Positions 5,633 through 8,499 of a stretch of 64,000 nt of DNA are shown in pieces. The stretch is taken from sequence record OM386655.1. One strand, written 5' to 3'. Under the pieces are notes generated by a model. It worked only from the letters and a program-made list of their open reading frames with translations, had not been told where the DNA came from and made no database searches. Source of the stretch: Escherichia phage vB_EcoM_ESCO10. The position numbers and the translations under genes are program-made. Each line of letters opens with the position of its first letter. Positions within the stretch are counted from its first letter, which is position 1.

Positions 5633-6187
5633 TTAAGAGTTCATAGTTGGGATAATAGTGTTCAGGTATTTTACCAGAACTTTTAATTCGTCTTTAGTGA
5701 ATACTACTTCAGCTTCACCGTCGTGGGTCTGGATGATAGATAACATATCGCGACCTTGATGTTGGTAGACACTGAATTCAGTATTATAATCACCTTCTTC
5801 ATCACCTTCAAAGGTTTCGCTTGAATGCATAATAGCATCACAACCAGGGATTTTCCACTCGAGCTCAGGTACACACTCTTCTTGGAACAGTTTAAAAATT
5901 TTCTCTAAAAATTCTGAACGGTTTTTAATGGATAAACAAGCCCATTCGGTTTCCAGATTAAAGCCATTTTCACCTCGATACAACCAAGCCATATCTTCAT
6001 CGTTAATTTTAAAGACCCGATTATGAGTTCGAATATACTGCTCTGCATCAATAACAGACAAGTCGTACAGGTTCTGAATATCCTGAATGGTCAAAACGAC
6101 TGTATCATCTTCTTGTTTAAGCACGATTGCATTATCAATTACATCGGCAGTCAGGTCACCAAACAACCCAGATTTTTCAATAATCAT
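5633..6187 (-). CDS. hypothetical acidic protein
   Basis: 184-aa ORF; GAGGAAA SD. Confidence 0.55.
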   Translation of the reverse strand: MIIEKSGLFGDLTADVIDNAIVLKQEDDTVVLTIQDIQNLYDLSVIDAEQYIRTHNRVFKINDEDMAWLYRGENGFNLETEWACLSIKNRSEFLEKIFKLFQEECVPELEWKIPGCDAIMHSSETFEGDEEGDYNTEFSVYQHQGRDMLSIIQTHDGEAEVVFTKDELKVLVKYLNTIIPTMNS

Positions 6188-6198
6188 TTTCTATTTCC

Positions 6199-6381
6199 TC
6201 ATTTCACATTTTGTTTAATAAAATTTAGTAATTCTTTAAGGGCCTTATCTTCTTCTTTAGAAAGCCTAGTACAATCATCAACCGAGTATTGGTGACAAAA
6301 TGCGGTTTCGAATCTAGCAACTGTACCTGCATAGGCCTCGATAAGCTCTTCAAGCTTTAAGTGCTTTTCTTTAGTTTTCAT
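6199..6381 (-). CDS. hypothetical protein
   Basis: 60-aa ORF; GGTGA SD. Confidence 0.4.
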   Translation of the reverse strand: MKTKEKHLKLEELIEAYAGTVARFETAFCHQYSVDDCTRLSKEEDKALKELLNFIKQNVK

Positions 6382-6384
6382 AAA

Positions 6385-6594
6385 TCACCGGTTATGTTTT
6401 AAAATACTATAAAGCTCTTCAACTTGGCTCGCATCCAGATAAATGACCTCGTCATCTTGTTCTAGGACAATCCCACCCTTAACAATATTCCACTCTACTA
6501 CTTCAACAGTCATATCATCACCAGAGCCTGCTAATGTTTCAGGTTCTAAAACAATAATACCATCTTCAGAATTACCACTCGGGTCATATAACAT
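6385..6594 (-). CDS. hypothetical small acidic protein
   Basis: Track ORF 6385..6669; start placed at ATG 6594 behind GAGGAAA SD; 5' boundary uncertain. Confidence 0.4.
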   Translation of the reverse strand: MLYDPSGNSEDGIIVLEPETLAGSGDDMTVEVVEWNIVKGGIVLEQDDEVIYLDASQVEELYSILKHNR

Positions 6595-6685
6595 TACAGT
6601 TTCCTCGCTAACCATGAAAAGAATAAACCAATTAAAACAGGCCCTACAGCCATTGTTAACCAAGCCCAAGGTTCAAGATAGTAAA

Positions 6686-6943
6686 TCATCTCATGCTCCT
6701 ATGCCAACAGTTACGTGGCTCGCGTTTAAAAATTTCATCATGCATCGCTTGACAACCTACACAGTATATCACACCCTTGATAGCTTGACGTCGTGCTTCA
6801 GGAATCTCTTCATCACAATCAAAACAATATTCAGCGGATTCACGTTCAACCGCTACTTGCTTACGAGCGTGTACTATAGCAGCCTGGACGACGGCTTCCA
6901 TTTCGAGCTGTTCGGCTCCATCCTTCGCAAATCCAACAGCCAT
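6686..6943 (-). CDS. TraR/DksA-type C4 zinc-finger protein
   Basis: CFDC...CVGC (CxxC-x17-CxxC) in an 85-aa protein. Confidence 0.55.
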   Translation of the reverse strand: MAVGFAKDGAEQLEMEAVVQAAIVHARKQVAVERESAEYCFDCDEEIPEARRQAIKGVIYCVGCQAMHDEIFKREPRNCWHRSMR

Positions 6944-7125
6944 TATATTTTTATCTCGTTTAGATAAGCGACCAATTTTTCTTTAGAATTCTTTAAGTCA
7001 CGGTTACATGCCTCTATCCCGGAGTATGAATATCCTTCGCAATGTTCAACAGCCAGTTCATAAGAGGTAATTTCAATATCACGAGCGAGTTTAATAATTT
7101 TTTCAATCTGTTCAGTGGTTAACAT
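6943..7125 (-). CDS. hypothetical protein
   Basis: 60-aa ORF abutting upstream stop. Confidence 0.45.
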   Translation of the reverse strand: MLTTEQIEKIIKLARDIEITSYELAVEHCEGYSYSGIEACNRDLKNSKEKLVAYLNEIKI

Positions 7126-7129
7126 AATA

Positions 7130-7366
7130 TCACCAGTATTTGTTGATGGTAGAAATTAATTCTTGGGCTTGAGTAGTCTTCAGCTTACACCCACATCCAT
7201 TTAATGTATCTTTAAGGAGCCATGGCTCCTTGAGCTCGTCCTTTTCTAGACGAATTCTGTATCCTCGGTAATCAGCAAAGATACTTCGGTCATCAAATAT
7301 CTTAATCTCAAGGAGACGGTTATTGATTTCGTATTCCAACGAAACCATAGTACTTGTAAGTTTCAT
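7130..7366 (-). CDS. hypothetical protein
   Basis: 78-aa ORF; GAGGAGAA SD; early-promoter cassette upstream. Confidence 0.55.
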   Translation of the reverse strand: MKLTSTMVSLEYEINNRLLEIKIFDDRSIFADYRGYRIRLEKDELKEPWLLKDTLNGCGCKLKTTQAQELISTINKYW

Positions 7367-7393
7367 AATATTCTCCTCATTAGTTGATAGGTC

Positions 7394-7422
7394 TATAGTA
7401 TCATGTTCCTAGAGGATGTAAA
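7394..7422 (-). promoter_or_regulatory. early promoter cassette with SD-pairing stem
   Basis: GTTTAC 7417..7422, TACTAT 7394..7399; TCCTC in the spacer is complementary to the downstream GAGGA SD. Confidence 0.6.
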
Positions 7423-7431
7423 CACCTAAAC

Positions 7432-7458
7432 GAAAAAAGGTCCCACCGAAGTGAGACC
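7432..7458 (-). terminator. rho-independent terminator
   Basis: Minus-strand hairpin GGTCTCAC-TTCG-GTGGGACC followed by a U6 run after gene 7464..7850. Confidence 0.65.
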
Positions 7459-7463
7459 TTTGA

Positions 7464-7850
7464 TTATTCTAACGTTAACAAATACTTAGTTTGGTAAAAG
7501 ACACCAGTGATGTCGTCCAAAGTCGATTGGATGGCCTTAGGAAGATTTTTGTAGATTTTATCAGATGCTTTAATAAGTTCATCAAGAAAATCTATAGGGT
7601 CTTTAGGCAGTTCTGAAGCAGACGGCAGTGATGCTTTATATTCTTTGCCACTAAATCCTAGATACTGCTCACTGAACTGGTCTAGTGGTCCTTGAACTTC
7701 CGTATAATAGAAGTCGTATGCTTTGTGTCTTGCATAGCTTTTGGTTTCCAAATGGGCTGACTTAAAATAGGCTAAAGAAACCAATAGCCAGCCAATATAA
7801 GAATCTACTTCAGTCCCTCGACTAAGTACGAAATCATTGAATTTCATCAT
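7464..7850 (-). CDS. hypothetical protein (position of T4 rI.-1)
   Basis: 128-aa ORF downstream of rI-like gene; hairpin terminator follows. Confidence 0.5.
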   Translation of the reverse strand: MMKFNDFVLSRGTEVDSYIGWLLVSLAYFKSAHLETKSYARHKAYDFYYTEVQGPLDQFSEQYLGFSGKEYKASLPSASELPKDPIDFLDELIKASDKIYKNLPKAIQSTLDDITGVFYQTKYLLTLE

Positions 7851-8127
7851 CTACCTTCATTAGTTTAGCGTATCGTTCTCCGACCGCCCGACCTTCAATC
7901 GAGCAAGACTCTATTGTATTGCAATTTGAAAGTTTCCAAGAAGCAGTTACATAAGCCCAGTAGTCTTCAGAGGCCTTTACGCTAGGTTTACTCATTTGCG
8001 CATAAACTGGCATCGCACTACTAGCAAAGGCGTCCATCAATTTAGGATCGGATTTGTTTGCTAGTGAAACTGTTGGGCTTAAACATCCAATCATAAGGAT
8101 ACAAGCCACTGTACGGAAAATACCCAT
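7834..8127 (-). CDS. rI: lysis-inhibition regulator RI-like protein
   Basis: 97 aa as in T4 RI; N-terminal hydrophobic signal-anchor; adjacent to tk as in T4. Confidence 0.55.
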   Translation of the reverse strand: MGIFRTVACILMIGCLSPTVSLANKSDPKLMDAFASSAMPVYAQMSKPSVKASEDYWAYVTASWKLSNCNTIESCSIEGRAVGERYAKLMKVDDEIQ

Positions 8128-8217
8128 ACAAAAGTCCTTTGTTATTTTATACGAATTTGCCTTTCGGCCTTAACCGATAGCGTTTTCCAAAAGCAAAAGC
8201 TCTATGGTTAGTAATTG

Positions 8218-8225
8218 TATTTATA
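8218..8225 (-). promoter_or_regulatory. possible late promoter (TATAAATA) upstream of rI-like gene
   Basis: Exact minus-strand TATAAATA about 90 nt upstream of the start; overlaps the stop of the upstream ORF. Confidence 0.3.
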
Positions 8226-8499
8226 GCTTTTTAAGCTTACTACAATAAGCATAAAATACATCGTTAAAATTTTCAGAAACCCATCCACGCTGTATAGGCG
8301 AAGTAATTGAAAGCAGATAATGTGCTTTAATTAACTCCATCCCATTTTTATTAGGGCATTCTTTATTATTAGCATTATACGTCGCTGCTACAACCTCTAT
8401 CTCTCTTTTGTAAGCCGTATCATCCATGATAGGCAAAAGAACAATATAAGAAATAGCCACAGCTACCGCTAGAATTAAAATCTTTGAATTTAGGTCCAT
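8221..8499 (-). CDS. small membrane protein
   Basis: 92-aa ORF with N-terminal TM helix, between tk and rI-like gene. Confidence 0.5.
   Translation of the reverse strand: MDLNSKILILAVAVAISYIVLLPIMDDTAYKREIEVVAATYNANNKECPNKNGMELIKAHYLLSITSPIQRGWVSENFNDVFYAYCSKLKKL

Follow-up and report, generated by a model that had tools for sequence, protein, structure and literature searches.

A YbiI-like zinc-finger protein of the DksA/TraR family in a putative early transcription unit of Escherichia phage vB_EcoM_ESCO10

A conserved gene of the DksA/TraR family

Positions 6686..6943 on the minus strand of the analysed stretch of Escherichia phage vB_EcoM_ESCO10 DNA (the window, 64,000 nucleotides in length) constitute a real and strongly conserved gene, and the 85-aa protein which it specifies is a C4 zinc-finger member of the DksA/TraR family that is assigned by sequence and profile comparisons to the YbiI branch of this family and not to the TraR branch. 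It is reasonably likely that this protein, probably an early one, docks in the secondary channel of the host RNA polymerase and alters open-complex kinetics without ppGpp, and that it would thereby disfavour the promoters of rRNA and ribosomal-protein genes and free polymerase for strong phage promoters, a mechanism read across by homology from TraR and lambda Orf73, as regards the binding to polymerase, the choice of promoters and the advantage to the phage alike.

The gene runs from an ATG start to a TGA stop (included in the coordinates), and its product reads MAVGFAKDGAEQLEMEAVVQAAIVHARKQVAVERESAEYCFDCDEEIPEARRQAIKGVIYCVGCQAMHDEIFKREPRNCWHRSMR. Cysteines C40, C43, C61 and C64 make up an exact CxxC-x17-CxxC knuckle (6752..6826, minus strand), and the original prediction, which had described an 85-aa protein with such a finger at 6686-6943, is correct on both counts. 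A pattern scan of all six frames established that this is the single genuine match in the 64-kb window, with no second copy of the motif found, while shuffling the residues of all 267 six-frame ORFs with 60 aa or more gave a chance level of 0.013 matches per shuffle. Variable sites in 18 ungapped homologous DNA copies were distributed over the codon positions of this frame as 37/25/80, and Nei-Gojobori counts for 18 DNA copies gave a whole-gene pN/pS of 0.21 at a pS of 0.66; on the strength of this codon-position pattern and pN/pS value the minus-strand ORF is regarded as coding. The same two measures led to the rejection of an antisense ORF of 174 aa (6443..6967) as a real gene.

The family assignment is carried by several searches. 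Pfam model PF01258 (zf-dksA_traR) matched the protein with 37 bits as against a gathering threshold of 24.9, with residues 38-66 aligned to profile positions 4-32 of 36 and the cysteines in register; the spacing on which the original prediction had staked its assignment therefore does align with the DksA/TraR finger. The protein also matched PHROG 54, 'DksA-like zinc-finger protein' (E = 6e-20). Single-sequence comparison with solved structures returned YbiI (PDB 2KGO) at E = 2.5e-9, in an alignment starting at Met1, and TraR (PDB 5W1S/6N57) at E about 6e-5, and with a 42-sequence profile these matches improved to 8e-17 and 1.6e-9, respectively. In the HHpred-type comparison which had been suggested as a check, hhalign aligned a 34-sequence family alignment with a TraR alignment at 98.9% probability (residues 19-73 on TraR 16-70), and at 99.6% in global mode with 130 YbiI-type as against 29 diverse TraR-type sequences; the first set of TraR homologues was composed of close TraR relatives only (at least 67% identity), with little diversity in that profile comparison, and the TraR profile was remade with 28 diverse sequences of the TraR type that the representative search had returned. 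The TraR/DksA-type layout originally proposed is thus upheld by Pfam, PHROG 54, hhalign and the fold searches described below.

Among the NCBIfam models the best match was the YbiI equivalog NF008243, which covered residues 1-71 with 75.5 bits and was below its cut-off of 96, followed by the TraR subfamily TIGR02419 (51.7 bits, cut-off 59.7) and the TraR equivalog NF010268 (31.4 bits, cut-off 108), while the DksA model NF033459 scored 12.3 bits, far under its cut-off of 105. The sub-cut-off scores with the YbiI and TraR models count against the mechanism proposed above. No match to the PADLOC defence models was obtained. YbiI of E. coli nevertheless gives the strongest match in both sequence and profile searches, and it aligns without gaps from Met1 through residue 31, shares the N-terminal pattern MAxG[FW]AxDxA and a C4 knuckle with IPEARR, and is of similar length (88 as against 85 aa). 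The N-terminus MAVGFAKDGA agrees with the bacterial YbiI signature MA[GST]G[FW]AKDGA. The two proteins differ in that their identity is about 35-46%, with the equivalog cut-off missed, in that the YbiI tail [YFI]NRRGSKDSQLR is replaced here by PRNCWHRSMR, and in that YbiI is chromosomally encoded and is itself without an assigned function. DksA and the phage protein have the zinc-finger motif and the paradigm of the secondary channel in common, whereas DksA is a ppGpp-dependent coiled-coil protein of 151 aa and the present protein has 85 aa and a single helix.

In an AlphaFold2 model of the protein (mean pLDDT 74) a long N-terminal helix at residues 5-28 (6860..6931, minus strand) is followed by the knuckle, by a C-terminal helix at residues 62-72 (6728..6760, minus strand) and by a tail of low confidence. 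TraR is made up of an N-helix at residues 2-27, a globular domain at 28-57 and a C-helix at 58-73 (PMC6970531), and the two predicted helices are the apparent counterparts of the N-helix and C-helix of TraR; the TraR-type architecture of a single N-helix, a zinc domain and a C-helix within about 70-90 aa is present in the model. Foldseek searches with the predicted structure returned YbiI as the top match, RNA-polymerase-bound TraR next and then DksA, the last as a weak match (E = 0.2-0.5), and the predicted fold is, as modelled, closest to YbiI and to RNA-polymerase-bound TraR. The phage protein resembles TraR of the F plasmid, a ppGpp-independent factor encoded on a mobile element, in its single N-helix, C4 knuckle and C-helix and in retaining counterparts of TraR R48, R49, P45 and E46, of which R51, R52 and P48 are invariant. 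It differs from TraR in that the DxxDxA motif is present in part, as F/A..D.A, in that its N-terminus is 2-3 residues longer, in that a basic tail of 12 residues extends past the TraR end, and in being encoded by a virulent phage and not by a conjugative plasmid.

Genomic setting and distribution

The 2.6 kb surrounding the gene are 95% identical to Escherichia phage vB_EcoM-VR5 and 82-93% identical to other Dhakavirus phages such as JS10, IME08, dhaeg and CLB_P2, which belong to the Tevenvirinae of the Straboviridae (T4-like coliphages). The gene is located in a variable region between nrdC and tk, where the order on the minus strand is tk, a small gene, rI, rI.-1/MobD.6, a terminator, a promoter, a 78-aa gene, MobD.3 and the zinc-finger gene, followed downstream by a 31-aa ORF, DUF7189, DUF7438, MobD.1, a membrane protein and NrdC.11. 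The rI/rI.-1 unit is closed by an intrinsic terminator (7436..7461, minus strand) with an 11-bp stem, a TTCG loop and a T-run, and directly downstream of it a promoter scan identified a sigma-70 promoter (7395..7423, minus strand) consisting of GTTTACA, a 16-nt spacer and a TG-extended TACTAT. This promoter is called T4-early-type because of its GTTTAC, which we take to be the -35 signature of T4 early promoters; it lies 479 nt upstream of the zinc-finger gene and contains the sole GTTTAC in 6600..8300.

The zinc-finger gene is the third gene of a translationally coupled block behind this promoter. The first gene (7130..7366, minus strand) specifies a 78-aa protein of PHROG 10363 with no assigned function and has a GAGGAG ribosome-binding site before its ATG, and the second (6943..7125, minus strand) specifies a 60-aa MobD.3-like protein (DUF7438), its stop overlapping the zinc-finger ATG in the sequence TAATG. 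On the downstream side the zinc-finger stop overlaps, as ATGA, with a hydrophobic ORF of 31 aa (PHROG 12165; 6594..6689, minus strand), which is followed by a 69-aa DUF7189 gene (6385..6594, minus strand) whose N-terminus is fused to the zinc-finger C-terminus in some Mosigvirus phages. The segment encoding the C-terminal tail of the zinc-finger protein shares sequence with the ribosome-binding site and the start of the ORF that follows, and a match resembling a promoter is present at 6707..6678.

Between the promoter and the zinc-finger gene neither a MotA-box/-10 pair nor a late TATAAATA motif was found. Of 21 related phage loci, 15 have the same promoter hexamers at a distance of 294-735 nt upstream of the homologous gene, and in these the TG is usually kept while the sequence of the spacer varies; the loci lacking the promoter motif include all four from jumbo-phage contigs of ~110-370 kb. 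The zinc-finger protein is therefore probably expressed early, and the placement of the gene among early genes in the original prediction agrees, at the level of sequence, with the T4-early-type promoter, the absence of an intervening middle or late motif and the recurrence of the promoter at these 15 loci.

Homologue searches distinguished three kinds of small DksA-family protein, the first being the TraR type, with about 70 aa and the N-terminus M(S/A)DxxDxA, and the second the YbiI type, with about 88 aa, the N-terminus MAxG[FW]AKDGAVQ and an invariant C-terminal [YFI]NRRGSKDSQLR. The third is the clade to which the present gene belongs, and combines a YbiI-type tip, MAVGFAKDGAEQ, with an invariant tail, FKRxPRNCWHRSMR. 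Many proteobacteria carry proteins of the YbiI type, as do T4-like phages infecting Klebsiella, Enterobacter and Acinetobacter; Cronobacter phage GAP52, which is not T4-like, also has one, and the one in Aeromonas phage 44RR2.8t ends in a different tail. Those members of the clade for which a long contig or a named source is available derive from T4-like phages of ~170 kb infecting Escherichia, Shigella, Citrobacter, Klebsiella and Yersinia and from jumbo phages of ~350 kb, such as 121Q and PBECO4. Two clade members are labelled as bacterial proteins, and both are located on contigs of jumbo-phage size. The YbiI-type proteins of T4-like phages, namely those of CC31, of the Klebsiella Slopekvirus/Jiaodavirus, of the Acinetobacter Hadassahvirus and ORF130c of Aeromonas phage 44RR2.8t, belong to the same family and occupy a similar early or accessory position, often near rI or mobD. 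Most of them differ in having the bacterial tail YNRRGSKDSQLR and the tip MAxG[WFY]GPxD, whereas the tip GFAKDGAEQ and a separate tail characterise the clade (Dhakavirus, Moon-like and Yersinia phages and the 350-kb jumbo phages).

A tblastn search at 1e-5 returned 677 phage records across many genera, 411 of which cover most of the protein. Four IMG/VR loci (L024-L027) with tail-only matches were discarded as chance, as their PRNCWHRSMR is encoded out of frame in an unrelated 307-aa ORF. Public proteins with 94-99% identity are already named as zinc-finger, DksA-like or YbiI proteins, under the names 'C-4 type zinc finger protein', 'putative protein YbiI', 'DksA C4-type domain-containing protein' and 'DksA-like zinc-finger protein', and mentions of YbiI-type proteins in T4-like phages go back to 2006 and 2015, a comparison of T4-like genomes published in 2006 listing a Pfam hit for ORF130c of Aeromonas phage 44RR2.8t (PMC1524935). 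The DksA-like/YbiI label of the gene is thus already known, and the gene call is an ordinary, correct family call which carries the same label in the databases, while the assignment to the YbiI branch, the incomplete tip motif and the constraint on tip and tail were not found in the literature searched.

T4 itself lacks the gene (PMC4319498), and a truncated chimera of it is present in about 25 phage records, with some Mosigvirus phages carrying only this form. These two observations indicate that the gene is accessory, and its accessory status counts against the proposed action on host polymerase. Together with its location in the variable mobD/rI-tk region, they could also be taken to mean that the gene is decaying, or has lost its function, in a plastic part of the genome. 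The selection analysis refutes this reading, to which we give practically no credence, as the pN/pS of 0.21 is accompanied by nearly saturated synonymous divergence, 29 residues are invariant among homologues which are 58-94% identical, and the ORF is intact in T4-like and jumbo phages alike.

Constraint on the tip and the clade-specific tail

An alignment of 42 phage homologues from the clade (58-94% identity) contains 29 invariant residues, which comprise M1, A2, G4, Q12, E14, A17, H25, A26, R27 and Q29 in the N-terminal half, C40, C43, I47, P48, R51, R52, G57, C61, C64, Q65 and D69 in and just after the finger, and R74, R77, N78, C79, W80, H81, R82 and M84 in the tail. Across 34 diverse members of the wider family G4, A17, the four cysteines, I47, P48, R51 and R52 are invariant. 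For E49 conservation is 90% or more. The tip (codons 1-12; 6908..6943, minus strand) is invariant or nearly invariant in the 42 homologues.

When pN/pS was determined by segment, the tip and the clade-specific tail were found to be the most constrained parts of the protein. A pN/pS of 0.00 was obtained for the tip (pS 0.59) and of 0.024 for the tail (codons 72-85, pS 0.53), as against 0.35 for codons 13-39 (pS 0.70) and 0.21 for the zinc finger (codons 40-64, pS 0.74). In the tip, D8 is encoded by GAT in 9 and by GAC in 13 copies and G9 and A10 each use four codons, and in the tail the two codons are split 11/11 for N78, 15/7 for C79 and 11/11 for H81, with four codons in use for S83. As synonymous sites vary freely, the constraint on tip and tail acts at the level of protein and does not reflect a DNA or RNA signal, and a DNA or RNA element beneath the conserved tail was rejected on the same ground. 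The tail itself (FKRxPRNCWHRSMR, residues 72-85; 6689..6730, minus strand) is basic, replaces the NRRGSKDSQLR of YbiI and is modelled by AlphaFold2 at low confidence; an invariant tail that has no counterpart in TraR and is modelled in this way counts against a mechanism transferred from TraR.

Possible action on RNA polymerase

The tip of TraR carries the motif DxxDxA near the active site of the enzyme, and both D3 and D6 are needed for function (PMC9239242, PMC6970531); lambda Orf73 is crippled by D3N or by D6N, each on its own (PMC9239242). The tip of the present protein reads F5-A-K-D8-G-A10 and keeps this motif in part, at most its D-x-A half, the first Asp being absent in either register, with the invariant aromatic F5 in its position or, in the alternative register, A6. 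The register of the tip relative to TraR D3/D6/A8 is ambiguous, as local hhalign, which leaves residues 1-18 unaligned to TraR, global hhalign, which places G9 opposite TraR D6 at low confidence, and pairwise phmmer disagree; pairwise HMMER comparisons place D8 opposite the second TraR Asp, with A10 opposite the Ala, in five of the seven alignments that reach the tip. Both the incomplete DxxDxA and the fact that the tip has no confident profile-profile placement count against the proposed mechanism. The pN/pS of 0.00 in the tip is as expected for a part of the protein that reaches the active site. The docking loop is aligned by HMMER and hhalign alike, I47-P48-E49-A50-R51-R52 (6788..6805, minus strand) corresponding to TraR I44-P45-E46-A47-R48-R49. 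In the TraR complex R48 of the globular domain contacts the rim helices, R49, E46 and K50 contact beta' Si3, and the C-helix touches the beta lobe and Si1 (PMC9239242, PMC6970531).

By analogy, the long N-terminal helix of the phage protein would enter the secondary (NTP-entry) channel of host RNA polymerase and bring its conserved acidic, small-residue tip, D8-G9-A10, near the active site, the zinc knuckle with its invariant I-P-E-x-R-R loop would rest on the beta' rim helices and Si3, and the C-terminal helix and basic tail would touch the beta lobe and Si1. Those promoters whose open complexes are short-lived, such as the ones for host rRNA and ribosomal proteins, would be disfavoured, and during the first minutes of infection polymerase would be released for phage promoters that are strong. 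Binding to RNA polymerase and inhibition of rrnB P1 have been observed for each of the five phage-encoded TraR homologues that were assayed (PMC9239242). These homologues (lambda Orf73, P2 Orf82, VP882 Orf61, VHML Orf8 and X. bovienii Gp34) are, like the present protein, small, phage-encoded, early-expressed and of the same Pfam family (PMC9239242). They differ in origin, Gp34 being from a likely prophage and the other four from temperate phages, and in that all are of the TraR type, whereas the present protein belongs to the YbiI type and comes from a virulent T4-like phage; none of the five has been reported to carry the tail of this clade.

Conservation of the binding-loop residues next to an incomplete catalytic-type tip motif could also be read as the mark of a channel occupant that acts mainly by competition, with little effect of its own on initiation. 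Such a protein would exclude DksA, and hence ppGpp site 2, together with GreA and GreB, and would render the polymerase of the infected cell insensitive to shutdown by the stringent response. Rnk is an earlier example of a protein that binds in the channel and acts by competition alone, the tip aspartates of DksA are needed for function and not for binding (PMC9239242), and restriction of phages by a stringent response has been described (PMC13483052). Gp34, which lacks D3, is instructive in this respect, in that it binds RNA polymerase as well as TraR does and is about eight-fold less potent in inhibiting rrnB P1 (IC50 of 415 nM; PMC9239242). We consider this competitor role unlikely, given that Gp34 does inhibit rrnB P1 and that the tip is the most constrained segment of the protein (pN/pS 0.00), which argues for a specific role and not for a passive plug.

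It is likewise conceivable, if rather improbable, that the protein does not act on RNA polymerase and that its knuckle and invariant tail bind another partner, or sense or handle metal, in a pathway which the phage copy exploits. The best matches are to YbiI, for which no function has been assigned and whose gene is located in an iron-related operon (PMC2613031), and the tail, as constrained as the tip, is specific to the clade (RNCWHRSMR, as against NRRGSKDSQLR in bacteria and many other phages). The clade has moreover gained invariant H25, C79 and H81, which could serve as metal ligands in a second metal site, and some C4 DksA-like proteins do not act like DksA (PMC9239242). Those non-working proteins lack the C-terminal helix, whereas such a helix is predicted here, and the whole TraR architecture is kept, including the I-P-E-x-R-R loop that contacts RNA polymerase. 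When overexpressed, YbiI reportedly relieves a dksA deletion strain of its amino-acid auxotrophy ('data not shown'; PMC2613031), which speaks for an action on polymerase and against a role away from it; the authors of that report guessed at a role for YbiI in iron metabolism. The rescue of the dksA deletion strain is the sole published functional statement on YbiI (PMC2613031). No binding or transcription assay of any YbiI-type protein was found in the literature searched.

The proposed docking in the secondary channel, with inhibition of rRNA promoters, has to be set against what is established for this group of phages. T4-type phages are the textbook case of a stepwise takeover of host RNA polymerase, by Alt/Mod, Alc, AsiA/MotA and gp55/gp33, and to our knowledge no takeover factor of these phages works via the secondary channel. 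They shut off host transcription by other means, including Alc, ADP-ribosylation and breakdown of the host DNA, and the need for an inhibitor of rRNA promoters is therefore not obvious. If the protein does bind polymerase, it would add a new layer to the T4-type takeover programme and provide a first function for the widespread bacterial YbiI branch. The phage TraR paradigm has been established for temperate phages (PMC9239242). The new lead is the near-absolute constraint on the tip and on the clade-specific tail, which indicates sites for mutation.

These same features allow the tentative and, in our estimation, doubtful proposal that the Dhakavirus-type and jumbo-phage clade represents a functionally distinct secondary-channel factor, in which the TraR docking loop is kept and is combined with an aromatic-plus-single-Asp tip, G-F-A-K-D-G-A, and an invariant basic Cys/Trp/His tail, RNCWHRSMR. 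As a secondary-channel regulator it would be the first on record for a virulent phage of the T-even type. Such a factor could have activities which TraR lacks, in that it could shield phage-directed polymerase from DksA/ppGpp or from the Gre factors, or could act on polymerase that has already been modified by T4-type factors. Its tail could also recruit a second partner, in the manner of the VP882 TraR, which according to a 2026 preprint works with the partner protein QisA.

Conservation of the C-terminal tail

The C-terminal tail of the zinc-finger protein, FKRxPRNCWHRSMR (codons 72-85, window 6689-6730, minus strand), was found to be without variation across T4-like and jumbo phages, with a pN/pS of 0.024 for these codons. 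Neither TraR nor bacterial YbiI possesses a counterpart to it. The clade-specific residues H25, C79 and H81 are possible ligands of a second metal site. In the tail, the predicted structure has low confidence. The peptide PRNCWHRSMR was also encountered on four IMG/VR contigs (L024-L027, approximately positions 1501-1542), where it lies in an alternative frame within an unrelated 307-aa ORF, and these contigs were rejected as relatives, the occurrence being a chance match of the 7-residue search pattern.

Clade members in jumbo phages

Members of the clade were identified at 62-66% identity on jumbo-phage contigs of approximately 110-370 kb, representing relatives of 121Q and PBECO4 (loci L009, L014, L022 and L023; proteins P0024 and P0030), and their presence there implies that the zinc-finger gene was exchanged between T4-like and jumbo phages. 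Two clade entries are labelled in databases as proteins of E. coli or Salmonella, but the contigs that encode them are phage-like and of approximately 350 kb.

A chimeric ORF in place of the zinc-finger gene

In approximately 25 phage records, among them those of the Mosigvirus JS09 and of PhAPEC2 and TH58, the position of the zinc-finger gene is occupied by a 54-aa chimeric ORF (phrog_25948), located in phage JS09 (L028) at 1459-1623 and with counterparts at window 6686-6775 and 6513-6594 on the minus strand. Over its N-terminal ~27 residues the chimera matches the N-terminus of DUF7189, the gene that lies downstream; its C-terminal 29 residues are those numbered 57-85 in the zinc-finger protein. 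The first CxxC is gone but the RNCWHRSMR tail is whole, and in one variant C61 is additionally replaced by Y. The chimera represents either a remnant whose reading frame is preserved because of translational coupling, or an indication of a separate use for the RNCWHRSMR tail.

Neighbouring genes and transcription signals

Two small genes, at 6943-7125 and 6199-6381 on the minus strand, flank the cluster. Each matches DUF7438 (MobD.3-like), the second at 22.5 bits, slightly under the Pfam cut-off of 25, which suggests a local duplication. Putative transcription-related labels are carried by two further minus-strand neighbours, namely rI.-1/MobD.6 (7464-7850; DUF5856; PHROG 858, 'starvation-inducible transcriptional regulator') and MobD.1 (5633-6187), which matches both Pfam T4_y05I domains, the N-terminal and the C-terminal, each described as a 'putative transcription factor' domain. 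The T4 late-promoter motif TATAAATA (8218-8225, minus strand), directly upstream of rI, belongs to a separate transcription unit closed by a terminator at 7461..7436, which precedes the early promoter serving the zinc-finger block. Elsewhere in the window, the gene for tRNA-Arg(TCT) (23909-23985) adjoins that for tRNA-Met(CAT) (23990-24064) on the minus strand, and together they form the phage's small tRNA cluster.
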